DNA from: Candidatus Nealsonbacteria bacterium
GTDB lineage: Bacteria; Patescibacteriota; Minisyncoccia; Minisyncoccales; PWPS01
Assembly: GCA_003557645.1 (NCBI GenBank)
Contig: PWNV01000014.1
Location: 17,989 to 81,988 of the forward strand
Direction: 5' to 3'
Length of the DNA stretch: 64,000 bases
Numbering within the stretch: the stretch's first letter is position 1; each line of letters starts with the position of its first letter. This document shows, piece after piece, positions 1 to 56,725 of the stretch. The position numbers and the translations under genes were made by a program. The notes beneath the pieces were generated by a model. It was not told the DNA's origin and did no database searches. It saw only the letters and a list, made by a program, of their open reading frames with translations.

Positions 1-1123
1 ATGTTCCCATCGAACCAGGAATGATCACTGGCTGGCCTATTTTTTTGTACCTTTCTGGAATCTTCTCGCTCCCTGGAGGAAGTGCTCTCGTTGCTCCCTT
101 TCGATGTACAAGAAGCTTTTTCCCTTGATGCTCTTCCATCTTCACCGTGTTATGTGCTACATCATAAACCATTTCCAGTCTTTCCTCTCCAAATACTTCC
201 GTCCACGCTTTAGAAATGAAGTGTCCAATCATATGCCTGTTGGCAAAAGCATAGTTCATTGCTCCAGAAAGTGCTTTTTGATAATTTTCCCCTTCCTTAG
301 AAAGAAAGGGAGCACAAACAAGCTCTTTATCAGGAATACTAATACCATGCTCTTTCATCTTTCCTTTCATTGTGTTGATATGTTCGCTGGCTACTTGGTG
401 GCCAAGCCCTCGTGATCCCGAGTGAACCATAATCATCACCTGTCCTTTAAAAATACCCATTTCTTCTGCCCCTGGAAAAATTTCTTTAACTTCTTGAATC
501 TCTAAAAAATGATTTCCTGATCCCAAAGTACCTACCTGATCCGCCCCTCTTCTTTTTGCTTTTTCTGAAATTAGAGAAGAATCTGCGTTGCTCATTCTCC
601 CTTCTTCTTCACAAAGTTCCGCTTCGCTTCCTTTCCCATATCCTTCCTCGATTAGATAGTCTACCCCTTCTTCCAATATTCTATCTATCTGAGAAAAGGT
701 AAATTTAAGCCTTCTTCCTTTTCCTAGGCCAGAAGGAATTTCTTTCTGTATTTTTTCAGCTAATTTTTTTAGACTTCCCTCTGATCCCTTTTTAGAAACA
801 CTTGAAGCGAAAAGCCTCATTCCACAGTTTATATCATATCCACAAACTCCAGGAGATATCACCCCCTTATCTATCTCTGTAGCAATCACTCCCCCAATAG
901 GAGATCCATAGCCCTCGTGCACATCAGGCATGGCCATTGCGTACTTGTAAGCACCAGGAAGAGTAGCAAGATTTATAAGTTGATCTAGTGACCTGTCTTT
1001 CAGGCTTTCCCTTAAAATTTCTTTAGTTGCGTACACTCTTGCAGGAACAAACATATCACTCCTGTGCTCTCTGGAAACTTCCCATAGATAATCATTCTTT
1101 TTTTTAAAATTATCTATCAACAT
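1..1123 (-). CDS. rtcB: RNA-splicing ligase RtcB (3' part runs off window start)
   Basis: Manual translation of minus strand from ATG (revcomp at 1121-1123): MPDVHEGYGSPIGGV, GSGNHF, HNTVK, HRKGAT motifs typical of RtcB; no stop before position 1. Confidence 0.85.
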   Translation of the reverse strand, partial: MLIDNFKKKNDYLWEVSREHRSDMFVPARVYATKEILRESLKDRSLDQLINLATLPGAYKYAMAMPDVHEGYGSPIGGVIATEIDKGVISPGVCGYDINCGMRLFASSVSKKGSEGSLKKLAEKIQKEIPSGLGKGRRLKFTFSQIDRILEEGVDYLIEEGYGKGSEAELCEEEGRMSNADSSLISEKAKRRGADQVGTLGSGNHFLEIQEVKEIFPGAEEMGIFKGQVMIMVHSGSRGLGHQVASEHINTMKGKMKEHGISIPDKELVCAPFLSKEGENYQKALSGAMNYAFANRHMIGHFISKAWTEVFGEERLEMVYDVAHNTVKMEEHQGKKLLVHRKGATRALPPGSEKIPERYKKIGQPVIIPGSMGT

Positions 1124-7628: not shown

Positions 7629-8516
7629 TTAAATTCCAAGTTCCAGGTTTACCTTTTCTTCCGGAAGACGATTAATCAAACTACTAAAACCAAGTCCTTC
7701 AAAAACAAGAGAAAGCCTTTCTTTCTTGTAATCGAAATAAAAATCTCCAAGATTAAAAGGAAAGTCTTTGTCCCTTCTTATCGTCGCCAATTCCTTGCTT
7801 AAAAAGGCTTTTTCTTTTTCTTCTTTCAATTTTTCTCTTAATCTCTCAGAAGCAACTTTATTTAAAGAAAAATACAAATTCTCCAAATTTTCAAACTCCT
7901 TGATAAGCTTTAATGCTGTCTTTTCTCCCACTCCGCTAACCCCAGGTATATTGTCCGAAGAGTCTCCCTGAAGAGCTTTTATATCTGGAATATTTCCTGG
8001 AGAAATTCCTTCATAACGCTCTTTAACCTTTTCTACGTCATATAAAACTCCTTCTTTTATTCCTCTTTTCAAGTTATAGATTTTTATGTTTTTGTCTGCT
8101 AGCTGTAAAATATCACCATCGCCACTTACAATAATTGTCTCCATCTCTTTCGAAGAAAAGAGAGAGAGAGTTCCTATGATATCATCCGCCTCCAGTCCTT
8201 TTTCTTCTAAAACAGAGACTCCCATTGCTTCAAAAATACTTTTCATTCCCTCTATTTGGGAAACAAGATCTGATGCAGTTTTAGGTCTTTGTTCCTTATA
8301 TTCCTTATACTTTTCATGCCGAAAAGTTTTTCCAGGAAAATCAAAAATTGCTGAAACATATTGAGGTCTAAAGGATGAAAATATCTTTAAAAACGCAAGC
8401 AAAGAACCGTACATCGCTCCTGCCGGTTTCCCATCCTTGGTGGTAAGTGGCGGAAGAGCGTGAAAAGCCCTGTGAAGAATAGAATTTGTGTCAATTAATA
8501 AGAATCTCTTTTCCAT
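7629..8516 (-). CDS. Stand-alone 5'-3' exonuclease (Pol I N-terminal/FEN-like)
   Basis: LLIDTNSILHRAFHALPP, GDSSDNIPGV, HhH; 295 aa without polymerase domain. Confidence 0.8.
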   Translation of the reverse strand: MEKRFLLIDTNSILHRAFHALPPLTTKDGKPAGAMYGSLLAFLKIFSSFRPQYVSAIFDFPGKTFRHEKYKEYKEQRPKTASDLVSQIEGMKSIFEAMGVSVLEEKGLEADDIIGTLSLFSSKEMETIIVSGDGDILQLADKNIKIYNLKRGIKEGVLYDVEKVKERYEGISPGNIPDIKALQGDSSDNIPGVSGVGEKTALKLIKEFENLENLYFSLNKVASERLREKLKEEKEKAFLSKELATIRRDKDFPFNLGDFYFDYKKERLSLVFEGLGFSSLINRLPEEKVNLELGI

Positions 8517-8761
8517 TGCTCTATACTATATCACATTAAAACCATCAAACACAGTCTTTGACAGAACGCCTTTTTTCTGATACTATAAAGTCATTATAAT
8601 AACTTTGGACTTGGAATTCATCTAAAAATCGTGTCCGTACTAAATTCACTATTTTTATATCGAGAACTAAAAAAATCGCGGGCTGTACTACTGAAATAGT
8701 GCCTGCATGCTCTTGAAAAAACGGGCAGAAAGACGTTGAAGAATCAAGTCTCCAAACTTGT

Positions 8762-10291
8762 ATGGAACAATTAACTTCACTTTTAGTGGCTGTGTTAATT
8801 TTGGTTACTGGTACCATTTTAGGGTATTACGCCAGACAATCAATCGCCAAAAGAGATCATAAGGCACTAGAAACCAAAGTACAGCAAAGAATAGATCACG
8901 CAAAAAAGAAAAGTAGAGGGATTATAAGCGAAGCAAAGAAACAAGCTGCTGAAACAGTAGAGACAGCAAAAAGAGAAACCGAAGAAAAGACAGAAGAACT
9001 TTTTAAACGAGAAAAATTTCTTTTAAAAAGAGAAAATTCTTTAGATAAAAAACTCTCTCATCATGAAAAAAGAGAGTCACTCTTTAATCAAAAAGTACAT
9101 CGCTTAAAAGAACTGAAAAGCCAAGTCGATACGATGCAAGAACAAGCTGAAACAGATCTTGCAAGAATTGCCGAGCTTTCTAAGGAAGAAGCTAAAGAAG
9201 AATTTCTTCAAGTCGTAGAAAGAGACTATGAAAAAGATATTGTTGATAGAATCGACAAGTTAGAAAGAGAAGGTCGAGACCGTTACTTACAAAGAGCAAG
9301 AGAAATCCTTGCTACTGTAATTCAAAAATACTCCGCTTCTCAAGTACAAGACCTTACAACGAGCAATGTAAGACTTCCCGACGACGAAATTAAAGGAAGA
9401 ATTATTGGAAAAGAGGGAAGAAACATTAAAACTCTAGAAAAATTAACCGGAGCAGAGGTAGTAGTAGATGACACTCCAGAAACGGTGGTTATCTCTAGCT
9501 TTGATCCGATAAGAAGACAGATCGCTAAAATAGCCTTGGAAAAACTTATTTTTGATGGAAGAATTCAACCAGCAAGAATAGAGGAAACTGTTGAAAAAGC
9601 AGAAGAAGAAGTTTCTGATCAGATTAAAAAAGCTGGAGAGCAAGCAGTTTACGACACAGGAGTTATCAATCTTGATCCAAAATTAGTAAATCTTTTAGGA
9701 AGACTTCTCTTCCGCTCTAGCTACGGTCAAAACATTTTAGCTCACTCTCTGGAGGTAAGTTTTCTTTCCGAGGCGATCGCTTCGGAGATCGGAGCAGACG
9801 CTTCTGTTTGTAAAAAAGCTGGGCTCTTGCACGACATCGGAAAAGCCTTGGACCACCAAGTAGAAGGCTCTCACGTTGATATAGGAATAAGGGTTTTAAA
9901 GAAGTTTGAAGTAGAAGAAGACATTATCACTGCAATGAAAGCTCATCACGAAGAATATCCTTATGAAAGCGTAGAAGCTGTAATTGTACAAACAGCAGAC
10001 GCGATTTCTGGAAGTAGGCCAGGAGCAAGAAAAGACACTCTAGAAAATTACTTAAAAAGACTAAGCGAACTGGAGGGAGTAGCAAACTCCTTTGCTGGAG
10101 TAGAAAAGTCATACGCTGTTCAGGCAGGTAGAGAAATAAGGGTGTTCGTAAAGCCAGAAGATGTAAGTGATTTGGAAGCAAAAAAGATATCTCGAAGTAT
10201 TGCAGACAAAATACAGCAAGATCTCAAATACCCAGGAGAAATAAAGGTGACTCTTATAAGGGAGAAAAGAATTATTGATTACGCAAAATAA
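8762..10291 (+). CDS. rny: Ribonuclease Y
   Basis: N-terminal TM helix, coiled-coil, KH (GRIIGKEGRNIK), HD domain (LLHDIGKA). Confidence 0.9.
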   Translation: MEQLTSLLVAVLILVTGTILGYYARQSIAKRDHKALETKVQQRIDHAKKKSRGIISEAKKQAAETVETAKRETEEKTEELFKREKFLLKRENSLDKKLSHHEKRESLFNQKVHRLKELKSQVDTMQEQAETDLARIAELSKEEAKEEFLQVVERDYEKDIVDRIDKLEREGRDRYLQRAREILATVIQKYSASQVQDLTTSNVRLPDDEIKGRIIGKEGRNIKTLEKLTGAEVVVDDTPETVVISSFDPIRRQIAKIALEKLIFDGRIQPARIEETVEKAEEEVSDQIKKAGEQAVYDTGVINLDPKLVNLLGRLLFRSSYGQNILAHSLEVSFLSEAIASEIGADASVCKKAGLLHDIGKALDHQVEGSHVDIGIRVLKKFEVEEDIITAMKAHHEEYPYESVEAVIVQTADAISGSRPGARKDTLENYLKRLSELEGVANSFAGVEKSYAVQAGREIRVFVKPEDVSDLEAKKISRSIADKIQQDLKYPGEIKVTLIREKRIIDYAK

Positions 10292-10538: not shown

Positions 10539-11129
10539 TTATGCTTTCCTTTTCTCCGTAATCATTTCGTCAATTACTCCGTACTCTTTCGCTTCTTCTG
10601 GAGTAAGATAAAAATCGCGATCTGTATCCTTTCGAATTTTTGTAATGGGTTGCTTTGTATGACTAGCTATTATCTTGTTCAGCTTCTCTCTAATTTTTAA
10701 GATTTGTTTAGCAGTAATTTCAATCTCCGCGGCCGCACCACTCGCTCCTCCCATAACCTGATGAAGAAGTATCTCCGAGTTTGGAAGAGCAAATCTTTTT
10801 TTTGCTGCTCCTCCAGCAAGAAGAACCGCTCCCATTGATCCAGCCATTCCTACACACACAGTGGAAACATCACACTTTACATACTGCATCGTATCATATA
10901 TCGCCATTCCTGCTGTTACAGAGCCTCCTGGACTATTAATATAAAGACGAATATCTTTTTGCGAACTTTGACTGGCCAAAAAAAGCATCTGAGCGATAAT
11001 AGAATTAGCAATATCATCATTAATAGGAGACCCCAAGAAAACAATTCTTTCCTTTAATAATCTAGAATAAATATCGTATGCTCTTTCTCCATATTGAGTT
11101 TTTTCCACTACTGTTGGTATAAGATTCAT
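10539..11129 (-). CDS. clpP: ATP-dependent Clp protease proteolytic subunit
   Basis: Ser-His-Asp triad context [17 protein letters not shown]; classic ClpP length. Confidence 0.9.
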
Positions 11130-12276: not shown

Positions 12277-12389
12277 GAATTAACTTATTTGTAATTATTA
12301 ATAAATATTGTCCGCTTCATGACGGACAATACAAACTTCTCAAGTAACTTTCATTGTAACAAAATATCTTTCTTTGTCAAATAAAATAG

Positions 12390-12464
12390 TGGACCCAGCC
12401 GGATTCGAACCGGCGGCCTCTTGCATGCGAAGCAAGCGCTCTAGCCTGTCTGAGCTATGGGCCC
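12390..12464 (-). tRNA. tRNA-Ala (anticodon CGC)
   Basis: G3:U70 identity pair, anticodon loop uuCGCau. Confidence 0.8.
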
Positions 12465-12470
12465 TCCATG

Positions 12471-12543
12471 TCGGGCCGCCGGGATTCGAACCCGGAATCA
12501 CACGAACCCGAATCGTGTATGTTAGCCGTTACACCACGGCCCG
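12471..12543 (-). tRNA. tRNA-Pro (anticodon CGG)
   Basis: Acceptor cgggccg/cggcccg, anticodon loop uuCGGgu. Confidence 0.8.
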
Positions 12544-12553: not shown

Positions 12554-13489
12554 CTATTCTTCTTTTACTCCCACTCTCTTCTTTGTCACCCATGCAAACC
12601 CTTCTCTTGAAGTGATCATCGCCACATCAACGGGCCCTCCAACTCCTGGCATATCTCCAGGGTCTCCTTTTATTCCATCCGAAAATCTTTGAATTGCAGA
12701 TGTGCTTTGAACCATCAGCACACAAAAATCAATTGCATCTTGTAATGTCATTGTTCCCCACTGAATAACGTACTCTAAGTTTCTTAATTGCTTATTAGTT
12801 TCTTCTTTCCCGTTTTGCTGTATCGCTTCTTTGACAAATTTAAGATTACCTATTCTCCCGTCAAAGCCCAAGACAATTCTTGAAACCACGTCTGTCTGCC
12901 CTATCCACGATGACCCGTACTCTTTACCTCCTTCATTTCCGTCTCTCACTTTTTGAACTTCTCCTGGAATATTACAAATACAAACTTGGTGGTTTCCGTC
13001 TTTATTGTACCCAACAACCATAAGCTTTATCATGTCAACAGTAGCTGAAGTTTCCTTTTCTTCCCCTTTACTATTCTTAAAGCGAATCTTAACAATCCCT
13101 CCTTCTTCTTTTTTATCTATAATCTCCGCTCCTTGTCTTTTTAAATCAATTTCAGCTCTTTTCATTAATTTCTCTACTCTCTCTTTATAATTATATTTTT
13201 TACTAAAAAGATAGTGTAATTTTTCCGCAATTTCTTGCACAGTTAAATTTTCTGTCTCTGTCTCGCACCTGAAAACATCAATAAATTTGCTAATATTTTT
13301 CATCACTCCGTCTTCTGGCAAAAAAGCAAGACCTGTTACGGCAACCCCCACCTTTTTGTTGATCTGAAAAAGCTTTGAAGCGTTATCTGAACCAATACGA
13401 GCCATTCCTTTGTGATTACGAAAAGACTGCCTGCTATCAACTGCTAAAATAATTCCCTCAGGAGTTGTTGTATTTATTGCCAAAGACAT
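12554..13489 (-). CDS. Ntn-hydrolase, proteasome beta-subunit/HslV-like protein with about 60-aa insertion
   Basis: N-terminal TTTPEGIILAVDSRQS (cf. HslV TTIVSVR..VIAGDGQ), conserved Lys (ASKLFQI), GVAVTG, GSSWIG (cf. GSGG) pattern. Confidence 0.45.
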   Translation of the reverse strand: MSLAINTTTPEGIILAVDSRQSFRNHKGMARIGSDNASKLFQINKKVGVAVTGLAFLPEDGVMKNISKFIDVFRCETETENLTVQEIAEKLHYLFSKKYNYKERVEKLMKRAEIDLKRQGAEIIDKKEEGGIVKIRFKNSKGEEKETSATVDMIKLMVVGYNKDGNHQVCICNIPGEVQKVRDGNEGGKEYGSSWIGQTDVVSRIVLGFDGRIGNLKFVKEAIQQNGKEETNKQLRNLEYVIQWGTMTLQDAIDFCVLMVQSTSAIQRFSDGIKGDPGDMPGVGGPVDVAMITSREGFAWVTKKRVGVKEE

Positions 13490-13599
13490 ATTTTTATTGT
13501 ATCTTATTATTAATAACTTTTTTAATTCTATTACAAGTTATGATTATATCAACCTTCCGCTAGCAAAAGGTCGTAAATATTAAAAAATACAATTAAAAA

Positions 13600-14085
13600 A
13601 TGAGCACTAAAATAATAGCATTAATCGGAGTCGTTCTTCTCGCCGTTCTTCTTCTACTTCTTTTCCTTGAAAGAACTGAAACAGAACTGCCAGAAGAGGA
13701 GATGGTAGACAAAGAGATTGAGTATTTTCTTTCTCTTAAAGAGGGAACTGTTTCTTCTTTAGGTGGTGATTACTTTATTATGGAAGCTATAGATACGAGA
13801 CGCTTTGAAGAAATGTCCGACGAAGAATTAATGAACTTAACAATAGAGGATTATGATACTGTCAATATAAAGGTAAATGTGACCGAAGAGACAGTTTTTG
13901 TTAATGAAACTGATTATCATTTTCTGGAAATTCCAGAAGAAAAGGAAGGATTAGAGGCTTTCGACTACATCAAGAACACTCCTGAAGAAGAGTATATTAT
14001 CGCTGTTTATGTTGACTTAGACGAAGAAACATACGAAGAAGACATCGTTGCTATCTATGTCTCCTGGAGTTACTATCCCAGATAA
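13600..14085 (+). CDS. Hypothetical membrane-anchored acidic protein
   Basis: Single N-terminal TM helix (IIALIGVVLLAVLLLLLFL) then Glu/Asp-rich domain. Confidence 0.5.
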   Translation: MSTKIIALIGVVLLAVLLLLLFLERTETELPEEEMVDKEIEYFLSLKEGTVSSLGGDYFIMEAIDTRRFEEMSDEELMNLTIEDYDTVNIKVNVTEETVFVNETDYHFLEIPEEKEGLEAFDYIKNTPEEEYIIAVYVDLDEETYEEDIVAIYVSWSYYPR

Positions 14086-15781: not shown

Positions 15782-16201
15782 ATGATTAAAAGGATATTGA
15801 TAATTGCCTGCATTCTCGCCCTTTTTCCTCTTATTTCCTTCGCAAATGGAGAAGAGGGTCTTGTTCCTTGTGGCCCAGGAACCGGTGTGGATTGTCAGTT
15901 ATGCCATCTGTTTGTAATTTTTGGCAATGTTGTTGACTTCCTCATGACACGATTAATCCCTGCAGCAGCCATCATCCTTATAATCTACGGTGGAATCATG
16001 ACCTATGTCCATTCTGCTAACCCCGAAGGATTTTCCTACGGGAAGAAAGTTATCCTTATGGCTATTGCGGGTGTCTTTATCGCTTACACAGCTTGGATTA
16101 TAATCGGTCTTATTCTTCAAGGGTTAGGAATGGTAGAAGACTGGGGATTTCATGATTGGTGGCAAAGCGGCCTTTACACAATAGAGTGTCCTGTCGATTA
16201 G
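15782..16201 (+). CDS. VirB2/TrbC-like pilin-family small membrane protein (signal peptide plus two hydrophobic helices)
   Basis: Signal peptide, GLVPCGPG...CQLCHLF motif, then LIPAAAIILIIYGGIMTYV / VILMAIAGVFIAYTAWIIIGLI helix-loop-helix; same domain at C-terminus of ORF 28084..31224. Confidence 0.55.
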   Translation: MIKRILIIACILALFPLISFANGEEGLVPCGPGTGVDCQLCHLFVIFGNVVDFLMTRLIPAAAIILIIYGGIMTYVHSANPEGFSYGKKVILMAIAGVFIAYTAWIIIGLILQGLGMVEDWGFHDWWQSGLYTIECPVD

Positions 16202-19196: not shown

Positions 19197-21440
19197 ATGG
19201 AAGAAGACACAAACATCACACAAGAGGTCCGAACAATGAAAAAAGACCTCGCTGTTGCCCGGGAGGGGGGCGAAGAAAGTGTCGTTCCTTCTCCCAGTTC
19301 TAAAAAATCTCCTCAACCCAGAGATGACGAAGAAAGAAGAAGAGAAGAAGAAGTAATAAGAAACGAAGAAAGAAGGAAGGAAGAGAAAAAGCGCAAAGAG
19401 CGACTAGCTGAAGAAGAAAAAATAAGAGAGATTGAAAAAGAGAAAATTTCAACATGGATAAATGATATTCAAAAATCCAAACAAGGGATTAGAGGCAAGA
19501 TTGCAAAAGAGATAGAGTCTTTAAAGAAGGAAATTGAAAATAAAATTCGCGAAGAGGAGGAAAAGGGTCGTAAACTGGAAGAAATACTACAAAAAAAGGA
19601 GTCGTTTGAGACAAAGGAAAATCTTTTCAAAAAGAGCATTCTTAAGCTAGAAGAAAAAAAAGATGCACTAAAACTAAAAGAAGCGAGTTTTAAAAAGCAA
19701 ATCAAAGAAATAGAGAAGATAAAGAAAGAATCAGAAAAAAAAGAAGATATCATCATAAAAGAAGAAGAGTTAAGCGAGAGAAAAAGAGAAGTAACTCAAA
19801 AAAAATGGGACACAGAAAAAGATCTCATACGAACTAAGAAAACAACTCATGCTATTGACTTGAAAAAACTCTACCTTTCCCTTCAAGTAGGTAGAGAAGA
19901 GAGAGAAGTCGAGAAATTAAAAACAGAAAGAGAAGCTTTGGGTCTTCAGCTTTCTATTCTTGTTCCTCAAAACAAAATTTCTTTTCTAGAAGAAAGGATC
20001 AACCTCTATGATCAAATATTAGGCCTTTTTCAAGCTCGGAAAAAAAGAATAAAGGATAGATTAAGAAAAGTAGTTCAGGCAGATAAGAATATCAAAGAAA
20101 GGTTTGTTGATATAAAGGAAAAGCTTGCACAAACAAGCAGCAACGAAGAATTGGAATCCCTTGAAAACGAGAGATGGAAAATTGAAGAGAAAAAGAGACA
20201 GATTAAAGAAGAGGCTTGGGAGTGGCAAGAAACAATAAAGAAAACAGAAGAAAAAATAAAAATAATTGAAACCAAAAAGAAGTCTGCGGAAGAGAAAACT
20301 CTTTCCCTGCGAAAAGAAATACAGCAAAACGAAAAATCTCTGCAAGAAAAAAGAGCCCTGATAGAGACTCTTCAAAATAAAGAAAAGAGCTTAAGAGAAA
20401 AAGAAGAGGAGGACATCAAAGAAAAGAAACGTCTCATCGTCCTTAAGAGGAGAGAATTTCTCCTAAAAGACCCTGTTTACAGGAAAAAGATTGTTGCAAA
20501 ACGAGTAGATCTTTTAAGCAAGATCTGTAGCGCTATAGAAGAAAAAAATAAAATTAAAGCAGAGCTACGAAGTCTTTTAGAAAAGGAAAGAGAAATTGAA
20601 TCTGAATTAAAAGAAACCCAAAAAAAGGAAGATGAGCTAAAGAAAGAGAAAGAAGAAGTGGAGAGAAGAGAGAGGATAGCAAAAGACCCGCAAGAAGTCA
20701 GAGAAATGGAAGAAAAGAGGTGGAAGATAGGAGAAGAAAGAAGATCTGTAGAAAAAGAGGTTCTAGAAATTCAAGAAAAATTAAGTCCTTTTACAGAGAA
20801 AAGAAAAGAAGCTGAAAAAGAATACGCTGTTCTTTCAGAGAAAAAAACAAAAATAATTAAACAAGAAGCTTCTCTTGCGTCTAAGTTACGAAGATGGATT
20901 AAAGCAGAAGAGCAAAGAAAAGAGATAGAAAAAAGAAGATCTCAGATAAACAGGAAAAAAGAAAATATTTCTAATGAAAAGGAAGAAAAAGAAAAAGGTA
21001 TAGAGGGAGTTGAGAAAAAATTGAACAATATACTAAAAAGGGAGAGTGAAGTAGAAAAGGACGTTCGATGGATAGAAGAAAAAATACAAGCCATGAACAC
21101 CGAATCAAAAGAAAGAAGAAATGAAGTTAAAAAAATGTGGCAGTTAGAAGATAAAAGAAGGGAGATAGAAAAGATGAAATGGGAGCTACAAGAAAAAGTA
21201 GATGAAAGCGGGAAAGAAAAAGAAAAAATTGAACAACAATATCAACTCCTTCTAGATGAAGAAAGTCGCCTGCTCAAGGAGAAAGAAGGCTTTAAAGAGA
21301 AAGAAGCACTCCTATCACTAGAAAAAGAAAAAGAGGAGATAGAGAAGATGATGGAAGAAGAAGACAGCGAAGTTCTTGAGAAAAAATTCGTAGAAATCGC
21401 ACATCAAATGATAAGCGAACTTCAAAAAACGGTCTCTTAA
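19197..21440 (+). CDS. Giant Lys/Glu-rich coiled-coil protein with Trp-containing periodic repeats
   Basis: Repeats such as ENERWKIEEKKRQIKEEAWEWQE, KRWKIGEERRSVEKE, KMWQLEDKRREIEKMKWELQEK; no enzymatic motifs. Confidence 0.6.
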   Translation: MEEDTNITQEVRTMKKDLAVAREGGEESVVPSPSSKKSPQPRDDEERRREEEVIRNEERRKEEKKRKERLAEEEKIREIEKEKISTWINDIQKSKQGIRGKIAKEIESLKKEIENKIREEEEKGRKLEEILQKKESFETKENLFKKSILKLEEKKDALKLKEASFKKQIKEIEKIKKESEKKEDIIIKEEELSERKREVTQKKWDTEKDLIRTKKTTHAIDLKKLYLSLQVGREEREVEKLKTEREALGLQLSILVPQNKISFLEERINLYDQILGLFQARKKRIKDRLRKVVQADKNIKERFVDIKEKLAQTSSNEELESLENERWKIEEKKRQIKEEAWEWQETIKKTEEKIKIIETKKKSAEEKTLSLRKEIQQNEKSLQEKRALIETLQNKEKSLREKEEEDIKEKKRLIVLKRREFLLKDPVYRKKIVAKRVDLLSKICSAIEEKNKIKAELRSLLEKEREIESELKETQKKEDELKKEKEEVERRERIAKDPQEVREMEEKRWKIGEERRSVEKEVLEIQEKLSPFTEKRKEAEKEYAVLSEKKTKIIKQEASLASKLRRWIKAEEQRKEIEKRRSQINRKKENISNEKEEKEKGIEGVEKKLNNILKRESEVEKDVRWIEEKIQAMNTESKERRNEVKKMWQLEDKRREIEKMKWELQEKVDESGKEKEKIEQQYQLLLDEESRLLKEKEGFKEKEALLSLEKEKEEIEKMMEEEDSEVLEKKFVEIAHQMISELQKTVS

Positions 21441-21464
21441 ATAAGCTTTCCTAAAAGTAATTCT

Positions 21465-24365
21465 ATGCAAAACGATACAAAACCAATCACTGCCGAACTA
21501 GAAGAAGAATTGTCTGTATTAAAAAAACTAGAAGAAAAGCTAGAAGAGTTAAAAGTTAGTCTTGTTGGTGCTGCAGAAAAAAAAGAACAAATCAAAAAGA
21601 GCTTGGACCTTATAAAAGAAAAGGAAAAAGAGATAGAAGAGAGAGAAAGAGAACTTGAGAAAAAAGGAGAGGAAGCACAGAACGAGAAAGAGAAAAGAGA
21701 GGCCGGAGAAGAAAGATGGAAGGTAGAAGATAAGCGCAAAGAAATTGAGAAAGATCGATGGGATTGGGAAAATAAAATTAAAGAGGTAGAAGAGAACATC
21801 TCCTCTCTAGAAAAAGAGAAAGAAGCTACTATCGAAAAAAAGAAGGAGGCAGAAGAAAAGGTTGATCAGCTTCAAAAAAACGCAGAACAGGAGGATGAAG
21901 AAAGTATCAAAACGGCAATAGAAAGAAAGAAAGAGGAAGAGTCCTTGGCTCTTGAAGAAAAGAAAACCTTAGCTGTGAAAAAGGAGAAGGCAAAGGAGGT
22001 TTTAAAAGAAATAAAGGAAAAAGAAAAGGAAATAGAAAGAACCGAAAGAGATCTAGAAGGAAAAGAAGAGGCAGAAAAAGATTTTTCTGAAAAAAAGAAA
22101 CTTAAGGAAAAAAGGTGGGAAGCAGAAGATCAGCGTAAAAAAATAGAAGAAGAAAGATGGAAAATTGAAGAAACTGTCTCCTCTATAAATGAAAAAATTG
22201 AAAAGAAAAATACTAAACTAAGCAGACTAGAAGATGAGATCGAATCACTGCAAAGACAAAAAGACGAAGCAGAGGTAATTGCAGGAATCAAAGAAACGCC
22301 AAAACCAGAGGCTGATCTTGAGAAAAAGGAAAAAGAACCTTTAACCGGAGATCTTGAAGAAAAAATAGTCGAGAAGAAGGAATCTCTCTCTGAAGAAAAA
22401 GAAACTCTTTTTGCAAAAAGAATGGAGCTCTCCGACAAGCTTCGTGAAACAAAGAAAAAAGAAAGAGCGACAGAAAAAGAAAAAATAAAAATTGAGAGAG
22501 AAGAAACAGCCGTAAAAGGAACAAGTAAAGAGAAAGAGATAACTGAGAAAAAATGGGCGGTTGAGGAAGAAAGAAGATCTACAGAACAGATAAGATGGGA
22601 TTTAGAGAAGGAGCTAGGAGATGTTAATAAAAGAATAGAAGAAATCAAGAGAAAAGAGAAAGTTATTAGAAAAAAGGAAGAGGAACTAGCAAAAAGAAGA
22701 GAAGAGAGAGAAAGAGAAAGGGAGATAAGGCAAAGAGAAAGAGAAGTAACTTCTAAACTCCAAGACAAGGATCTCTCTTTAACACAACAAAAGAAGCTCC
22801 AGCTAGAAAAAATGGGTCTCCTAAAAGAAAAGCTAAGTGATCAGTTCTATCGATACAAAGAAGAAAAAAAACTTTTAGAAATTGAAATTGACAAGCTCTC
22901 ACAAAAGGAAAAAGAAAACGAGAGAAAGTTGGAAGAGGCTTATGAAGAAGAAAACTACGCAGAGAAAAAAAAGAATGAGATTGAGGCAAAGGAAAAAGCA
23001 ACACACAATGTAAAAGAAAAAGAAGAAATAGAAAAAAGCAGATGGGAAGCAGAAGAGGAAACGAGAGAAGCTAAAAGAGTTGTCTGGGATATTAAGGAAA
23101 GATTGAACGAAATAAAGAAAAGAAGTCGCAGAGCACACACAAAAAAATGGAAAGTTTCCACCAAGGAAAAGAGAGTTCAAGAAAAATGGCACAGCCTCGC
23201 TCGTAAAGAAGAAAGAGCTAGGGTTTCTCTGGAAAAAGCAAAAATAAAAGAAAAGATTAAATCTATTGAGAGTGAAAGGAGGACTCTTGACCTAGAAATA
23301 GTTAAGACAAAGGAAAGAAGAGATCATTTACAAGAAAAGATCGCTACTGTTATTGAAAAAGAAACTGTTATTGAAAAGAAAAAGAAAGAAATCGAAGAGG
23401 AAGAAACAGCCGCCAAAAACCCTGAAGAAAGAAGGGAGAAAGAAAAAGAGAGATGGAGAGTGGAAGAAAAAAGGAGAGAAATTGAGAAAGAAAAATGGTC
23501 ATTACAAGAAAAGATCAAAACAATAGAAAAAGATCTATACTCTTCTGAGCTGCATTATCAGCAAACGCTAAACAAAGAAGAAAACTTAAAGAAGAAAGAA
23601 TCCTCTCTTTCTAAAAAAGAAAAAGAGCTAATAGCCAAAGAAAGCAAGAGAGAGAAAGCTAAAGAGCTAAAAAGATTGCAGGCAATTAAGGGCAAGATCG
23701 AGGAGAAAAAAGAAAGCTTAATTGACGAAGAAAACCAACTAAAAGATTCTCTTAAAGAAATGAAGGAAAAAGTGAAAGGAATGAAGAAGGTTATGCACGA
23801 TATTGAAGAGGAAGAAGAATTCATCGAAGAACCTGAAGAAAGAAAAAAAGTAGAAGAAAAAAGATGGAAAGCAGAAGAAGATAAGCGCGAAACAGAAAAA
23901 AAGATCTGGGAATTAGAAAACAGATTAGCGGAAATTGAAACGGAGAGAAAGGGCTTTGATCTTATTAAAAAAAGAGAATCAGAAATCCAAGCAGAACTAG
24001 AAAAACTAGAATCTCTTTTAAGAAGAGAGAATGATGCTTTTGAAGAAGATTACACTGACGACCTAGAAGATGAGGAGGAAGCCACAGAAGAAATAGATCA
24101 AAGTTTAAGTAAAGAATCTTTTCGAGAAAGAAAAAAGAGAGAAATCGAAGAGGAAGATAGCGATGAAGAAGAAGATTATGAAGATGAAGAAGAAGATTAT
24201 GAAGATGAAGAAGAGGATGATGAGGAGAGAAAAGACAAAGATGAAGAAGAATATTATGAAGATGATGAAGAAGACGATGAGGAGGATGATGAAAAAACTC
24301 CATCAGAGTCAGAAGAAAAAGAGAAGAAAGATCCTAATATCTCTGACCTAGATTTTAAGTTTTAA
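21465..24365 (+). CDS. Giant Lys/Glu-rich coiled-coil paralog (six about 140-aa-period W repeats) with poly-acidic DYE tail
   Basis: ERWKVEDKRKEIEKDRWDWE, KRWEAEDQRKKIEEERWKIE, KKWAVEEERRSTEQIRWDLE, SRWEAEEETREAKRVVWDIK, ERWRVEEKRREIEKEKWSLQ, KRWKAEEDKRETEKKIWELE; same frame as upstream ORF, separated by one TAA. Confidence 0.6.
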   Translation: MQNDTKPITAELEEELSVLKKLEEKLEELKVSLVGAAEKKEQIKKSLDLIKEKEKEIEERERELEKKGEEAQNEKEKREAGEERWKVEDKRKEIEKDRWDWENKIKEVEENISSLEKEKEATIEKKKEAEEKVDQLQKNAEQEDEESIKTAIERKKEEESLALEEKKTLAVKKEKAKEVLKEIKEKEKEIERTERDLEGKEEAEKDFSEKKKLKEKRWEAEDQRKKIEEERWKIEETVSSINEKIEKKNTKLSRLEDEIESLQRQKDEAEVIAGIKETPKPEADLEKKEKEPLTGDLEEKIVEKKESLSEEKETLFAKRMELSDKLRETKKKERATEKEKIKIEREETAVKGTSKEKEITEKKWAVEEERRSTEQIRWDLEKELGDVNKRIEEIKRKEKVIRKKEEELAKRREEREREREIRQREREVTSKLQDKDLSLTQQKKLQLEKMGLLKEKLSDQFYRYKEEKKLLEIEIDKLSQKEKENERKLEEAYEEENYAEKKKNEIEAKEKATHNVKEKEEIEKSRWEAEEETREAKRVVWDIKERLNEIKKRSRRAHTKKWKVSTKEKRVQEKWHSLARKEERARVSLEKAKIKEKIKSIESERRTLDLEIVKTKERRDHLQEKIATVIEKETVIEKKKKEIEEEETAAKNPEERREKEKERWRVEEKRREIEKEKWSLQEKIKTIEKDLYSSELHYQQTLNKEENLKKKESSLSKKEKELIAKESKREKAKELKRLQAIKGKIEEKKESLIDEENQLKDSLKEMKEKVKGMKKVMHDIEEEEEFIEEPEERKKVEEKRWKAEEDKRETEKKIWELENRLAEIETERKGFDLIKKRESEIQAELEKLESLLRRENDAFEEDYTDDLEDEEEATEEIDQSLSKESFRERKKREIEEEDSDEEEDYEDEEEDYEDEEEDDEERKDKDEEEYYEDDEEDDEEDDEKTPSESEEKEKKDPNISDLDFKF

Positions 24366-24378
24366 GCCTCATCAAGCT

Positions 24379-25710
24379 ATGAATATTGTAACCTCAATTG
24401 AAACAGCAAGAAAAAAAGGAGCTTCTGATGAGAAGATCTTACTTGAAATAAGGAAACAAAATCCAGAGAAAGAAGACTTTTTTATTAAAGCAGAACACCG
24501 AGGAGCAAGCGCTTCTCATATTTTAGATGAGATAATTAGGCAAAATAAGGAAGAGAAAATAGAAGAAGATGCCACTTCTATTAGAAGAAGAAAAGAAGAA
24601 GAAAGAAGGAGAAAATTTTTGCAAAAAATTGAGGAGAAGGAAAAAGGAGAAAAGGAAGGTTTCGCTACTCCTTCCTCGGAAGCATTTACTCCTTCTTCTG
24701 TAACTCCTTCTCCAGAACAAGAAGAGATTTCTCCCCCTCTCTCTCCACCTCAAAAACCGCCCGAGAAAGAAAAACAAGTAAATCGTATACTTGTTATCAT
24801 AGTCATTCTTACTATTTTTGCTCTTTCTGTTGCTTTTCTTTATAGAATTTTGTTTCTGACCTCTCCTCCTGACGTCGAGCCAGTGGAAATAATTATAGAA
24901 GTTCCTATCCCCCGTGCACCTGAATCACTGGTAGAAATTGATGAAGAAAAAGATGATATTGTTAGATTCCCCGCTATAAACAGCAATGAACATATCATTG
25001 CTCTACGCAAAGCGATGGAAGAGATGGAGAGAGGAGAAATAACACGTATAATTATTGAAGACCAAAGAGAAGAAGAGCCACGTATTTCTGATCTGGAGGA
25101 TTTTTTTCGTCTTTTTAATATAAGGTCTCCCGAGAAGTTTTTTGAGATGATAGAAAAAGACTTTACTCTCTTAATATACACAAAAGAAGAGAAAAATCGC
25201 CTAGCCTTTGTAGTAAAAGCTAAAGAAAGAGACTTGGATCTAGAATGGTCTTTAATGAGGCCGTGGGAAAGATCTATCGAAAGGGATTTTCGTGGTCTTT
25301 TTGCTTTTCTGGAGATAGAAGTTGAAGATACTAGTGAAGAGTTAAATAATTTCATTTACGAAAGGCCTGGCAGAAGTAATCCTGTTATTCGTTATCGTAG
25401 CATCCCCTCAGATAAAAACCTTCTTATAGTTAAAGACTCTACTTCTGTCTATTCTGATACTGATAACTTTATCGAGATAGGAAGAACTTCGCATGAAGAA
25501 AAATATGAAGAATTAAAAGTAGAAGATGGTTGGTACAGTATTGCCATAAACAATACTGAAGGGTGGATAGAGGAAGATGCGGTTATAGAGGTAGAACCAT
25601 TCGGAGAGAACGTTGGCCTGTACTACTCTATTATGGAAGGGCGTATGGAGGATAAAATCGTCTTTTCTACTTCCCTTGAAAGTATCAAAGTAATAATTGA
25701 CCGTTTATAG
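24379..25710 (+). CDS. Hypothetical bitopic membrane protein (charged N-domain, Pro/Ser linker, TM, C-terminal globular domain)
   Basis: TM ILVIIVILTIFALSVAFLY in the middle; C-terminal GWYSI...GWIEEDAV reminiscent of SH3b-like fold. Confidence 0.45.
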   Translation: MNIVTSIETARKKGASDEKILLEIRKQNPEKEDFFIKAEHRGASASHILDEIIRQNKEEKIEEDATSIRRRKEEERRRKFLQKIEEKEKGEKEGFATPSSEAFTPSSVTPSPEQEEISPPLSPPQKPPEKEKQVNRILVIIVILTIFALSVAFLYRILFLTSPPDVEPVEIIIEVPIPRAPESLVEIDEEKDDIVRFPAINSNEHIIALRKAMEEMERGEITRIIIEDQREEEPRISDLEDFFRLFNIRSPEKFFEMIEKDFTLLIYTKEEKNRLAFVVKAKERDLDLEWSLMRPWERSIERDFRGLFAFLEIEVEDTSEELNNFIYERPGRSNPVIRYRSIPSDKNLLIVKDSTSVYSDTDNFIEIGRTSHEEKYEELKVEDGWYSIAINNTEGWIEEDAVIEVEPFGENVGLYYSIMEGRMEDKIVFSTSLESIKVIIDRL

Positions 25711-31233: not shown

Positions 31234-31920
31234 ATGTCTGATAAAAAAATAGTTATTGTAAGTTTCTTAATGATAGCTTTTCTGGTTCTCTCTACATATA
31301 TCCACAGTCAAAGAACTAGAGATATTCAAGAGAACGGCCATCCCGTGCTGCCAAGCAAAGAGTTCTCTTCTTCCGATCATTCTCTCCCCAAGTTAGAAGA
31401 CATTATCAGTGAAAGATCTGGAGAAAATCAAGGAGAGAGACTAAGAGAGCCCGAAGAAATCGAGTATAAAGAATTTATAGATCAAGATAACAAAATAACG
31501 GTAGAGTACCCTTCACACTGGAAAGTTACAGAAGATGCAACTCCCTTAGGGCAAGATAATATAGATTTCCTTTTTGTTGCTTTCTTAGAAGGATCCTACG
31601 AAGTAAGGGCTGGAATGACCATTTTGAGAGGACAAAACTTAGATGAAGACAGTAATTTGCTTGAAAAAACAGAAAGTACTTTTGCCGATGCCGCTAGCCG
31701 AGAAATTTTAGAAGAAAAAGAAACCGAAAACGGGAAGATATTTAAGACAAAATATAAAGATTCATTAGGAGAGATTCGTGGCAAAGAAAAGGTTATGCAG
31801 GCTAATGATAGTAGTTACATGGTCTCCGTTTTTGTGATGTCTCACTCCTGGGAAGATTTCTTACCTCAAACAGATCATATAATTAATTCTGCCACAATTA
31901 GAACAGAAAACGACTTATGA
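31234..31920 (+). CDS. Hypothetical bitopic protein (N-terminal TM plus periplasmic/extracellular domain), VirB8-like topology
   Basis: Single TM (IVIVSFLMIAFLVLSTYI) then about 200-aa soluble domain; size and topology as VirB8 but no sequence motif recognised. Confidence 0.35.
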   Translation: MSDKKIVIVSFLMIAFLVLSTYIHSQRTRDIQENGHPVLPSKEFSSSDHSLPKLEDIISERSGENQGERLREPEEIEYKEFIDQDNKITVEYPSHWKVTEDATPLGQDNIDFLFVAFLEGSYEVRAGMTILRGQNLDEDSNLLEKTESTFADAASREILEEKETENGKIFKTKYKDSLGEIRGKEKVMQANDSSYMVSVFVMSHSWEDFLPQTDHIINSATIRTENDL

Positions 31921-33035
31921 TAAAAAAACCCACCTTACTAAAAATAACAAAGCTTGCACTTGTCTTTCTATTTTTTTCTTTTCTTCCTTTTACTTTTTCT
32001 TTTGCCGGCGAAGATCCGGCTGAAACAGAAGTTATCTGGCCCACCTCTCCTGTAGGAACAGAGTTTACTCGAGACATGCCATTGCACGAGCTTATCGCTT
32101 ATTTTTATGAATGGGGTATTGTTATCGGAATACTGGCAGTGTTTGGTATTTTGGTTTTCGCCGGATTTCAATACACAATTTCTGCTGGAAAGCCTGCCAT
32201 GATGACAGACGCCCTAAGTAGAATTCAAGCTGCAATAATTGGTCTTGTTCTTCTTTTATCTTCTTGGCTAATATTAAGCATTATTAACCCTGAATTGGTA
32301 AAAATTTCTCCTATCACATTTAGTATTTCTGATGAAATACGTGGATTAAATCTTGACGTTGATGATCTCTACGGAGCACCAGTCGACGCTGTAGAGTTCT
32401 ATCCTAAAAAGAATTATGAAGGAGATATTATCTCCACATTATATACTCCAAAAAGATCAACATATGAAATAAGAATAGAACAAGTTCATTATTTAAGTCA
32501 GGGTGGAACAGTTGCTGCTCCAGGAGAAGGAGAAGCAATTCCTCCAGAATCAGCAAGAGGATTTACAGCTATTCCTCCTTCCGAGATGATACAGTGGGAA
32601 CAAGGAATAGATCTTGATTATCAAAGATACAGTCATCCTCCTCTAGATGGAGTACTCGCAGGAACAGGATCATATCTCTCCTTTGGACAAAAAATGATTC
32701 CAGATCCCGAAGGTCTTTATAAAGAAGGAGGATCTTCTTTAGTTGATCTTTACGAAGAAACAACCAGGGGTTTTTGGGACTGGCTTACGGGAACGAAAAT
32801 TAATTGTGAAAGCAAATTAAGTCGAGGAATAATTTCCACGGTTGATGTTAGAGAAGGAATTTTTGGTTTTGACAGAGAAATAAACTGCATGATAATTGAA
32901 CGAAGACACGTGCCTTTAGATGATGCCTTGTTTGGTAGTCCTGGTGAAAACGCGGTAAGAGTTTCTCCCGTTTTTTGCGATGGAGGTGATCCGTGTTTCT
33001 ACAATCCTCCGGAAGACGAAATTCCAGAAGATTAA
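31917..33035 (+). CDS. VirB2/TrbC-like pilin domain protein with about 240-aa C-terminal extracellular extension
   Basis: Signal peptide, LHELIAYFYEWGIVIGILAVFGILVFAGFQYTISAGKP...IQAAIIGLVLLLSSWLILSIINP two-helix pilin pattern. Confidence 0.55.
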   Translation: MIKKPTLLKITKLALVFLFFSFLPFTFSFAGEDPAETEVIWPTSPVGTEFTRDMPLHELIAYFYEWGIVIGILAVFGILVFAGFQYTISAGKPAMMTDALSRIQAAIIGLVLLLSSWLILSIINPELVKISPITFSISDEIRGLNLDVDDLYGAPVDAVEFYPKKNYEGDIISTLYTPKRSTYEIRIEQVHYLSQGGTVAAPGEGEAIPPESARGFTAIPPSEMIQWEQGIDLDYQRYSHPPLDGVLAGTGSYLSFGQKMIPDPEGLYKEGGSSLVDLYEETTRGFWDWLTGTKINCESKLSRGIISTVDVREGIFGFDREINCMIIERRHVPLDDALFGSPGENAVRVSPVFCDGGDPCFYNPPEDEIPED

Positions 33036-56646: not shown

Positions 56647-56651
56647 GCATG

Positions 56652-56725
56652 TGCGCGTGGATGGACTCGAACCATCGACCTCAGACTTATAAGATCTGCG
56701 CTCTCACCGACTGAGCTACACGCGC
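56652..56725 (-). tRNA. tRNA-Ile (anticodon UAU)
   Basis: Perfect cloverleaf gcgcgtg...cacgcgc, anticodon loop cuUAUaa. Confidence 0.7.

Follow-up and report, generated by a model that had tools for sequence, protein, structure and literature searches.

A predicted proteasome-like N-terminal-nucleophile hydrolase of the PMI type, with folded insertions, in a Candidatus Nealsonbacteria genome

The locus lies in a 64,000-nucleotide stretch of Candidatus Nealsonbacteria DNA (hereafter the window) and comprises a minus-strand coding sequence (CDS) for a protein of 311 aa, which begins MSLAINTTTPEGIILAVDSRQS in the ORF listing, together with the features collected in Table 1. M-S is the earliest start available to this frame: the ORF caller opens each frame at the first start codon past the preceding stop, and no other in-frame start lies farther upstream. 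The CDS is placed, as the earlier note had described, between a tRNA pair and an unrelated membrane protein, and we infer that the CDS and the tRNAs are co-transcribed. The neighbors within the window are the tRNAs, NusA, ClpP, a CCA-adding enzyme and the membrane protein, with ClpP located 1.4 kb downstream of the CDS on the same strand. FtsH, at a distance of 43 kb from the CDS, is the only AAA+ protease within the 64 kb. No HslU, ClpX, PAN or ARC was found anywhere within the 64-kb window, in agreement with the claim that no unfoldase is nearby, and no further proteasome-family match was found among the 32 window ORFs scanned, which were the CDS neighbors and the longer ORFs. The closest genome, a Candidatus Nealsonbacteria MAG, is syntenic with the window, which bears out the earlier description of a reduced (CPR) genome. 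The gene order NYN, S15, CCA-adding enzyme, target, NusA, ClpP and RNase Y was common only to this closest genome. As no other locus has ClpP or NusA linked to the gene, a functional linkage with them was rejected. The GC content of the CDS is 0.377 compared with 0.367 for the window, so that the composition of the gene is that of the host genome, and a dN/dS of approximately 0.06 against the nearest ortholog (Nealsonbacteria) shows that purifying selection on it is strong.

Table 1. Features at and around the CDS, with positions counted along the window.
Feature	Position	Strand	Evidence
CDS, predicted PMI-type proteasome-like N-terminal-nucleophile hydrolase, 311 aa	12554..13489	-	ORF, PF00227, homologs, AF2, Foldseek, hhalign, dN/dS
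tRNA-Pro(CGG) and tRNA-Ala(CGC), directly downstream of the CDS	12389..12543	-	tRNA search
Terminator-like hairpin past the tRNAs	12305-12332		sequence scan
Candidate promoter-like TTGATA-16-TAGAAT (13552-13525) and TACAAT -10 hexamer ending 6 nt before the ATG	13496..13552	-	consensus scan only
Membrane-anchored acidic protein, 161 aa, without Pfam match	13600-14085		
Ser2 codon (TCT), predicted nucleophile, Thr1 equivalent	13484..13486	-	family profile vs PDB and hhalign register
Asp18 codon (GAT), Asp/Glu17 equivalent	13436..13438	-	alignments; D/E in 77/78 diverse relatives, Asp in 80/80 genomic homologs
Lys39 codon (AAG), Lys33 equivalent	13373..13375	-	alignments; 77/78 diverse relatives, 80/80 genomic homologs
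Gly53 codon (GGT), equivalent of oxyanion-hole Gly47	13331..13333	-	alignments; 77/78 diverse relatives, 80/80 genomic homologs
Insertion 1, residues ~101-150, after H2 at the "pore-loop" site	13040..13189	-	gap vs 20S beta and vs ~270-aa relatives
Insertion 2, residues ~205-238, between H3 and H4, three short helices	12776..12877	-	AF2 model; gap vs 20S beta (hhalign)
Conserved 11-residue loop 272-282 (GIKGDPGDMPG), ahead of the GGPVDVA strand	12644..12676	-	gap vs 20S beta; 5/11 invariant

The protein was compared with proteasome subunits by profile and by structure. The Pfam proteasome profile PF00227 was passed only marginally, as the protein scored 23.5 bits where the gathering cut-off is 22.4, and the match covered residues 9-55 only; a precomputed PF00227 match was present on many of the homologs. 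When the single sequence was searched against PDB sequences only chance matches were returned and a family profile was needed, which recovered yeast beta1 (E 2.9e-6) and also 20S alpha subunits (E about 1e-4). With hhalign the family profile was aligned to the archaeal 20S beta subunit of T. acidophilum with 97% probability and an E value of 1e-10 over 189 columns, which take in the entire domain. The AF2 model (pLDDT 96.3, pTM 0.92) displayed the four-layer alpha-beta-beta-alpha Ntn fold, with two central sheets and helices H1 (66-76), H2 (84-98), H3 (200-207) and H4 (249-269), and it ended in two strands (287-293 and 297-302) followed by a 9-residue tail. In a Foldseek search of this model against the PDB, all of the top 50 matches were 20S subunits (both beta and alpha) with a probability of 1.00 and a TM-score by target of 0.45-0.76. 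Matches to Pfam DUF4959 and to NCBIfam MotP and PqqD-related models were far below their cut-offs and for this reason were taken as chance. The profile and fold searches proposed for the earlier assignment to a proteasome-beta-like Ntn hydrolase thus both pointed to the proteasome fold, and on the basis of the profile alignments and the predicted structure the protein is a proteasome-like Ntn hydrolase.

With respect to the active site, the nucleophile predicted from the alignment register is Ser2, once the initiator Met is removed. The earlier note had taken the TTT run at residues 7-9 as the catalytic N-terminus; this proved incorrect, as profile alignments set Ser2 opposite Thr1, and position 2 was Ser or Thr in every relative inspected (78/78 diverse relatives and 80/80 genomic homologs). 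In essentially all members position 2 directly follows the initiator Met, and in secreted-looking relatives a predicted signal peptide ends right before a Thr in the same register as Ser2. When the second residue is small, as Ser is, the initiator Met is taken off by methionine aminopeptidase, and in Ntn hydrolases a single residue serves as both nucleophile and base through its free alpha-amino group and hydroxyl. Lys39, the conserved Lys which had been noticed after the N-terminus, is situated 21 residues past Asp18 and aligned with Lys33, and the S2-S3 loop ahead of it exceeds that of 20S beta by 5 residues. The alignment check of the Thr/Asp/Lys-type triad accordingly returned it intact, as Ser2, Asp18 and Lys39 by profile alignment. 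The GxAxxG and GSxxxG blocks were likewise located, at G48-G53 (mapping to Gly47) and G192-G197 (mapping to Gly130), respectively. Loop 21-38, which lines the substrate pocket, was the most conserved stretch of the protein, with 10 of its 18 positions at least 95% invariant. Opposite proteasome Ser129, Asp166 and Ser169, hhalign placed I196, F269 and G284, with no conserved identical residues aligned; the conserved S270-D271-G272 nearby might, from its position in the sequence, substitute for these supporting residues.

The internal charged insertion described in the earlier note is real and follows H2, but it measures ~50 residues (about 101-150) and not ~60. In the AF2 model it forms a helix (101-118) and a three-stranded beta-meander (122-129, 132-138 and 144-150) with a pLDDT of about 97. 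Lys, Arg, Glu and Asp are abundant in this insertion, which is of mixed charge and is the least conserved region of the protein, with 1 of 54 positions invariant. Relatives of ~270 aa were found to be without this insertion and to carry insertion 2, whose modeled helices span residues 211-215, 217-226 and 228-238. This second insertion and the 11-residue loop 272-282 had been missed in the earlier note. In the survey by Fuchs, Alva and Lupas (PMC8665760), the sites of these insertions in PMI-3 and PMI-4 are identified as the ring and ring-ring interfaces of the 20S proteasome and HslV, and insertions there are argued to be incompatible with rings and double rings. The built-in subdomains of the present protein probably preclude a barrel.

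The family comprises 1161 full-length homologs forming 763 clusters at 50% identity. The 121 GTDB loci which were collected came from CPR phyla, Atribacterota, Omnitrophota and Methanobacterium, together with a small number of MAGs that bear a Proteobacteria label, with 55-77% identity. Conservation at this level between phyla and domains could just as well stem from extensive interfaces between subunits, in which case the protein would form a large assembly. PMI stands for "Proteasome homolog with Multiple Insertions", a set catalogued computationally by Fuchs, Alva and Lupas in 2021, and PMC8665760 describes PMI-3 and PMI-4 as having a long insertion after H1/H2, a further one between H3 and H4, and no propeptide. 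Table 1 of that paper lists PMI-3 from other Bacteria, Euryarchaeota and a few Proteobacteria, with 28 sequences reducing to 11 at 70% identity, and OGZ26396.1 and HDY66466.1 are the representatives of PMI-3 and PMI-4, respectively. No OGZ or HDY accessions were found in look-ups of our homolog clusters. We take the OGZ-series accession of the PMI-3 representative to come from a CPR-rich groundwater data set. No biochemical data on any PMI protein were found in the literature. The protein fits the PMI-3 or PMI-4 type by match to the published descriptions, with the choice between the two drawn by us, and because its architecture and distribution agree with these groups it is presented here as an addition to an already catalogued, uncharacterized group.

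Gene neighborhoods were compared across 80 clustered GTDB loci (L006-L085). The only recurrent immediate neighbors were LexA-type winged-helix and TPR genes, other neighbor clusters being mostly unannotated. In about 15 CPR relatives a LexA-type winged-helix gene was situated immediately upstream and translationally coupled, with gaps of -17 to +16 nt and often a 4-nt overlap; the relatives with this coupling fall in three separate clades of the family tree and include loci from Magasanikbacteria and Moranbacteria. These LexA-type neighbors are without the S24 protease (self-cleavage) domain of LexA; several of them have hydrophobic, TM-like segments at their ends and contain the conserved linker motif IKTDGT. 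Most loci were without a LexA-type partner, and no LexA-type winged-helix gene was detected in the 64-kb window by hmmsearch with E values up to 10. By analogy with ImmR/ImmA, DdrO/IrrE and CapH/CapP, which the arrangement would resemble but with an Ntn hydrolase, the enzyme of these CPR relatives may be the trans-acting protease of a repressor-protease switch, cleaving the LexA-type repressor or freeing it from the membrane so that genes are turned on; we consider this reading improbable. If it holds, the enzyme would have a different specific target in genomes without the partner, such as that of the window. The 80 clustered loci contained no linked AAA+ gene, and none was called beside the gene in five further loci.

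Mobile-element and defense contexts were also considered. A tblastn search of 50,697 phage records and 72,556 plasmid records returned no match, and an IMG/VR pattern scan yielded nothing. BFVD contained one phage proteasome-like protein, of 219 aa and without the insertions, and the PHROG match (phrog_5990, E 7.5e-6) was confined to residues 280-305. A phage or plasmid vehicle is unsupported by these results. A defense system was likewise rejected, as PADLOC gave no match for the target or its LexA-type partners.

The explanation which we favor as a whole, and consider likely, is that of a PMI-type Ntn hydrolase which is ATPase-free, non-barrel and substrate-specific. The protein is cytoplasmic and has no propeptide, and removal of Met would leave Ser2 with a free alpha-amino group and hydroxyl acting as nucleophile and base, with Lys39 and Asp18 as the proton relay. 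The two folded insertions would occupy the sites used for ring and ring-ring contacts in 20S and HslV, and the enzyme would work independently of an ATPase, either alone as a monomer or in a small oligomer of unconventional form, cleaving, or possibly transpeptidating, a specific peptide or protein rather than degrading proteins in bulk within a barrel. In the subset of CPR relatives with the coupled gene, the likely substrate or regulator would be the upstream LexA-type winged-helix protein. The proposal of ATPase-free, non-barrel and specific action is drawn from the insertions at the contact sites, the lack of a linked unfoldase and the conservation of pocket loop 21-38.

Several other explanations were weighed against this one. 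A self-compartmentalizing ring protease like HslV, BPH or Anbu, forming a double or split ring and degrading unfolded proteins, possibly with an unlinked AAA+ unfoldase, would share the fold and catalytic residues of the ring-forming relatives; a surface that is for the most part very highly conserved would be in keeping with numerous contacts between subunits, and the presence of ClpP and FtsH speaks for the reliance of this genome on compartmental proteases. We nevertheless regard such a ring as improbable, since the folded 50-residue insertion at the pore-loop site and the helical H3-H4 insertion fall on the interfaces named in PMC8665760, the C-terminal H5 helix is lacking, profile similarity to HslV is not significant, and a linked AAA+ gene was absent from the window as well as from the loci surveyed above. 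Less probable still is a sequence-specific transpeptidase or ligase of the connectase kind in place of a hydrolase. Connectase, a proteasome-like protein with insertions and probably monomeric, is a specific ligase according to PMC8665760, the pocket loop of the present family is very highly conserved, and the IKTDGT motif of some LexA-type partners could be a recognition site; against this, the protein lacks the defining anatomy of connectase, as it retains H1 and H2 and has its insertions at other sites, and the window contains no conserved gene for a candidate substrate.

A catalytically dead, alpha-subunit-like scaffold or pseudoenzyme would account for the 20S alpha matches in the PDB profile search and for the lack of evident Ser129, Asp166 and Ser169 equivalents. 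It is very unlikely, because the invariance of S/T2, D18, K39 and G53, with position 2 right after Met, is hard to explain without catalysis, and no alpha-type N-terminal H0 extension is present. That the ORF arose by chance or was mis-called had been refuted by the number of full-length homologs and their clusters, the low dN/dS and the confident structure model; with nothing but the weak single-sequence Pfam score in its favor, this explanation can be regarded as practically excluded.

For the window itself, the outcome is chiefly the correct annotation of a "hypothetical protein". More broadly, proteasome-like proteins beyond 20S, HslV, Anbu and BPH are almost entirely unexplored, and connectase, the one that has been studied, is a useful and highly specific protein ligase. 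Because of its high conservation, an intact active site with Ser, and subdomains which probably preclude a barrel, the present protein is a promising candidate for a substrate-specific enzyme that needs no ATP. Orthologs occur in cultivable Methanobacterium, among them M. ferruginis NBRC 105197, and the function is therefore within experimental reach, while the LexA-type proteins encoded beside it in CPR relatives supply a concrete candidate for the substrate.

Among known systems, the 20S beta subunits (archaeal PsmB and eukaryotic beta1/beta5) gave the best profile and fold matches and share the catalytic register, H1-H4 and the two central sheets. In contrast to these subunits of ~200 aa, the protein has 311 aa, three insertions, no propeptide and Ser for Thr, and is unaccompanied by an alpha-subunit gene among the 32 window ORFs scanned or by PAN or ARC within 64 kb. 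The NCBIfam model arc_protsome_B (TIGR03634) was matched at only 18.8 bits against a cut-off of 224, and 24 of 25 family members matched it weakly only. HslV is likewise bacterial and starts with Met plus nucleophile, but it is compact (~175 aa) and HslU-dependent, whereas here large insertions are present; hhalign against E. coli HslV gave a probability of 0.8% (E 0.066), no NCBIfam HslV match was obtained, and no HslU gene was found within the 64-kb window or beside homologs.

An Anbu/BPH-like protein, as the earlier note had suggested, would also be a bacterial proteasome homolog without a dedicated unfoldase. Anbu, however, has a long C-terminal H5 coiled-coil helix, which is missing from the AF2 model. 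The Anbu operon contains ATP-grasp, transglutaminase-like and alpha-E genes; it was not found around the CDS in the window, nor was it recurrent in the 80 clustered loci. BPH is compact, with a long acidic pore loop and heptameric double rings, whereas the present subunit is not compact and holds a folded alpha/beta subdomain of mixed charge at the pore-loop site. Given these differences, and a profile closest to 20S beta and alpha, the Anbu/BPH-like assignment is not supported. Connectase is similar in being proteasome-like with insertions, in probably acting on specific substrates without rings, and in occurring also in methanogens. In connectase, H1 and H2 are missing and two helices are inserted between S3 and S4 (PMC8665760), in contrast to the present protein, in which both helices are retained and no helical insertion is found among the N-terminal strands. 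The protein is not HslV, Anbu or connectase, and it is probably not BPH. Compared with PMI-3 and PMI-4, the LexA-type winged-helix coupling and the preference for Ser at position 1 are absent from the description in the accessible portion of PMC8665760. With these groups it shares a proteasome-like core with the Thr/Ser1, Asp17, Lys33 and Gly47 site, the lack of a propeptide, with which the N-termini of relatives agree, and, as described in that paper, the post-H2 insertion and the insertion between H3 and H4, together with the taxonomic spread and tight clustering of PMI-3.

The open reading frame that the earlier note placed at 12554-13489 was confirmed at exactly these coordinates on the minus strand, and encodes a 311-aa protein with the N-terminus MSLAINTTTPEGIILAVDSRQS. 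Translation cannot begin earlier than the ATG at 13489, because no other start lies between it and the preceding stop; this leaves no room for an encoded N-terminal extension or propeptide. Because a -10-like hexamer ends 6 nt ahead of this ATG and no Shine-Dalgarno motif was evident upstream of it, the mRNA could be leaderless; a further promoter-like site lies upstream. The gene is real, resident and under selection, with a GC content of 0.377 (surroundings 0.367) and a dN/dS of about 0.06 against the ortholog in the nearest genome. A Candidatus Nealsonbacteria MAG, the closest genome, was the only one to share the gene order of the window; identity to it was 77% for the target, 88% for NusA, 93% for ClpP and 86% for RNase Y. 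The tRNA pair on the 3' side of the target is followed by a terminator-like hairpin and then by nusA and clpP, an order of the last two genes which is common to the window and this relative and not to the other loci. The divergent 161-aa protein, for which no Pfam or PADLOC match was obtained, is conserved (58%) only in the same relative.

Positions of features in the window, in the target protein and at related loci
Feature	Position	Strand	Remarks
Target ORF	12554..13489	minus	311 aa
tRNA-Pro(CGG) and tRNA-Ala(CGC)	12389-12543	minus	downstream of target, same strand
161-aa protein	13600-14085	+	upstream of target, divergent; single N-terminal hydrophobic segment, very acidic body
clpP	10539-11129	minus	directly after nusA; no adjacent clpX
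TACAAT, -10-like	13496-13501	minus	
Further promoter-like site	13552-13525		
FtsH	56771-58609		
tRNA-Ile, anticodon UAU	56651-56725	minus	
Pilin, ATPase and large-ORF regions	15782-16201, 31917-33035, 38183-40021, 50387-51688, 19197-25710 / 33066-35306		
Predicted nucleophile (Thr1)	Ser2		diverse relatives (78): Thr 41, Ser 37 (100% S/T); genomic homologs (80): Ser 78, Thr 2
Asp/Glu17	Asp18		Asp or Glu in 77/78 and 80/80, respectively
Lys33	Lys39		77/78 and 80/80
Gly47	Gly53		77/78 and 80/80
Insertion 1	residues ~101-150		after H2; helix 101-118, three-stranded meander 122-129, 132-138, 144-150
Insertion 2	residues ~205-238		between H3 and H4; helical; also in shorter relatives
Conserved 11-residue loop	residues 272-282		third addition relative to 20S beta
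LexA-type gene next to homolog	L007, L008, L009, L041, L043, L045, L049, L064, L068, L071, L076, L078; also L028, L070, L001		
TM/TPR gene next to homolog (Atribacterota)	L023, L027, L029-L033, L035, L036, L038		protein ~392 aa, N-terminal TM segment and TPR repeats
LexA/S24/methyltransferase fusion	L002/L017, ~8143-9618	minus	491 aa; divergent, upstream of homolog

Elsewhere in the 64-kb window, 19 tRNA genes occur in small clusters. A tRNA-Ile with anticodon UAU is present; such a tRNA is uncommon in bacteria and, in known cases, replaces the TilS-dependent CAU tRNA-Ile. The window also encodes T4SS-type pilins, a TraG-like P-loop ATPase and a T2SS/T4P ATPase, along with several very large ORFs of 443-966 aa that lack a Pfam match; this set suggests a surface or conjugation-like apparatus, of a kind common in CPR genomes.

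The case for the target as a proteasome homolog was solid once its homologs were included. Searched alone, it matched Pfam PF00227 with 23.5 bits (gathering score 22.4) over residues 9-55 only, and a single-sequence search of PDB sequences gave nothing meaningful. The metagenomic protein database contained 1161 relatives, the best 120 of which were all full length with identity of at least 67%, and an exhaustive HMMER search produced 763 clusters at 50% identity. When a profile was built from 78 diverse family members, it matched both beta and alpha subunits of 20S proteasomes in the PDB, with a best E of 2.9e-6. It also aligned by hhalign with mature Thermoplasma beta (97% probability, E 1e-10, 189 columns), a sequence entered by hand after UniProt P28061, so that residue-level statements carry a caveat; an independent profile alignment to PDB chain 1fnt_H gave the same register in the N-terminal half. 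The AlphaFold2 model built on the alignment of the 78 diverse members was very confident (pLDDT 96.3, pTM 0.92), and the top 50 Foldseek matches in the PDB were 20S subunits only (probability 1.00, TM-score by target at most 0.76). Profile, model and structure search thus bear out the original proposal of a proteasome-like Ntn hydrolase.

With respect to the active site, the TTT run at residues 7-9 had been taken as Thr1, but the alignments put Ser2 in this position. Profile position 4 lies opposite residue 3 of mature yeast beta1 in the PDB alignment, and L3 of the target lies opposite T2 of Thermoplasma beta (hand-entered P28061 sequence); Ser2 is therefore the Thr1 equivalent. The spacing from Ser2 to Asp18 is 16 residues, the same as from Thr1 to Asp17. 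Methionine aminopeptidase is well established to take off Met before Ser, and would do so in the target. No conserved identical residue was found opposite the secondary residues Ser129, Asp166 and Ser169 of the hand-entered Thermoplasma beta, whose position is adjoined by a conserved S270-D271-G272. Some distant family members (P0160, P0174, P0221, P0235, P0263 and P0268) carry an N-terminal signal peptide. Predicted cleavage falls just ahead of a Thr whose spacing from the DSR motif is unchanged, an independent sign of the same nucleophile register. As this cleavage would expose the Thr, signal peptidase may activate these relatives as proteasome-like hydrolases that are secreted or periplasmic.

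The AlphaFold2 model and the profile alignment revealed three additions relative to 20S beta. Insertion 1, which corresponds to the "charged insertion" noticed earlier, is rich in Lys, Arg, Glu and Asp and confidently folded in the model; it is absent from relatives of ~270 aa and is the least conserved region (invariant positions 1/54). The S2-S3 loop (residues 21-38), beside the active site, is 5 residues longer than in 20S beta and is the most conserved stretch of the target, with 10 of its 18 positions invariant.

Pfam scanning of 32 ORFs, comprising the target's neighbours and the longer ORFs of the window, found no HslU, ClpX, PAN, ARC or Cdc48, in agreement with the reported lack of an adjacent unfoldase; FtsH was the only AAA+ protease among them. 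Likewise, no linked AAA+ gene was present in 80 GTDB species-representative loci (L006-L085), whose genes were clustered together with those of the window, or in 5 further contigs analyzed by called genes. About 15 CPR loci, spread over three separate clades in the family tree, have a gene for a LexA-type winged-helix domain (PF01726) immediately upstream of the homolog on the same strand; it is translationally coupled to the homolog, with a gap of -17 to +16 nt (4-nt overlaps included). The flanks vary by locus and therefore the pair behaves as a two-gene cassette. These LexA-type neighbours (124-336 aa) lack an S24 peptidase domain, and some have a conserved IKTDGT linker motif and TM-like hydrophobic C-terminal segments. 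The two genes may constitute a repressor-protease pair, and of the new leads this coupling, seen in relatives, is the most promising; no LexA-type gene was found in the window by hmmsearch. Ten Atribacterota loci carry instead a TM and TPR protein 27 nt upstream, which always precedes one of two Atribacterota clades, while the other clade follows small membrane proteins. Methanobacterium loci displayed ordinary genus-level synteny. The fusion at L002/L017 joins a LexA DNA-binding domain, an S24 peptidase and an N6/N4 DNA methyltransferase, and several CPR loci repeatedly feature, in the vicinity of the homolog, orphan N6_N4 methyltransferases, serine recombinases and PD-(D/E)XK genes.

A pattern-limited scan with one genome per species identified 121 loci from many CPR phyla, Atribacterota, Omnitrophota and Methanobacterium, all with 55-77% identity to the window protein. 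These include an Atribacterota single-cell genome, a complete Omnitrophota chromosome and complete Methanobacterium genomes (for example M. ferruginis NBRC 105197). The neighbour-joining tree had a star-like backbone, from which a single clade of Methanobacterium, two of Atribacterota and several of CPR branch. Some short MAG contigs that fall inside CPR clades bear other labels (among them Pseudomonadales, Heimdallarchaeota and Desulfobacteraceae), which may reflect binning errors. Searches for phage, plasmid and IMG/VR carriers found none, and PADLOC defence-system models did not match the target. The gene is accessory and sporadic in its distribution, and has passed between phyla and between domains. 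One Atribacterota MAG (CAZAJW01) holds two copies (L016 and L066), whose identities to the window protein are 68% and 57%; they lie in different tree clades, which points to paralogs or two separate acquisitions.

The results taken together show a proteasome-like fold in the model and an essentially invariant Ser/Thr1-Asp-Lys-Gly site that starts right after the initiator Met. Purifying selection on the gene is strong, two folded insertions occupy the canonical ring interfaces, and no unfoldase is linked. We consider it probable that, once Met is removed, Ser2 would serve as the N-terminal nucleophile of an enzyme that would work without an ATPase, as a monomer or unconventional oligomer, on a substrate that is a specific peptide or protein. 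Oligomeric state and substrate are the least certain parts of this reading. In some CPR lineages the co-encoded LexA-type protein may be this substrate. The main rival, a compartmental protease that forms rings and has its partner encoded elsewhere, is unlikely. A connectase-like ligase is somewhat less likely again, as connectase differs from the target, in which H1 and H2 are present. With the catalytic residues so widely retained, a dead scaffold is very improbable. The earlier interpretation was partly right: the target is a proteasome-like Ntn hydrolase that stands alone in a reduced genome, with its nucleophile reassigned and its Anbu/BPH label replaced by the type described below.

Fuchs, Alva and Lupas (Bioinformatics 2021, PMC8665760) describe 22 new subfamilies of proteasome-like proteins, including the PMI group (proteasome homologs with multiple insertions), and give the Thr/Ser1, Asp17, Lys33 triad and Gly47 as common to all members, with propeptides only in 20S beta and HslV. 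In that scheme, long insertions follow H1/H2 in PMI-3 and PMI-4 and are predicted to clash with the assembly of a ring, while PMI-2 to PMI-6 carry an H3-H4 insertion predicted to prevent double rings. The PMI-3 table row lists a few Proteobacteria, other Bacteria and Euryarchaeota (representative OGZ26396.1; 28 sequences, 11 at 70% identity) (PMC8665760). HslV, Anbu, connectase and true 20S beta were ruled out feature by feature, and BPH is improbable. The target subunit is not compact, in contrast to HslV (hhalign probability 0.8% against a hand-entered E. coli HslV sequence), and HslU was absent from the scanned window ORFs. Unlike Anbu it has neither a C-terminal H5 helix nor an Anbu operon; unlike the compact BPH it has a folded subdomain at the pore-loop site. 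Against TIGR03634 for true 20S beta it scored 18.8 bits (cut-off 224). Because the published taxa and the OGZ accession series, which we take to come from groundwater sampling with many CPR genomes, fit the loci found here, the target is placed in PMI-3, or less likely PMI-4, by the published description. No experimental study of a PMI protein came up in our literature search; the target is a new member of this already described type.
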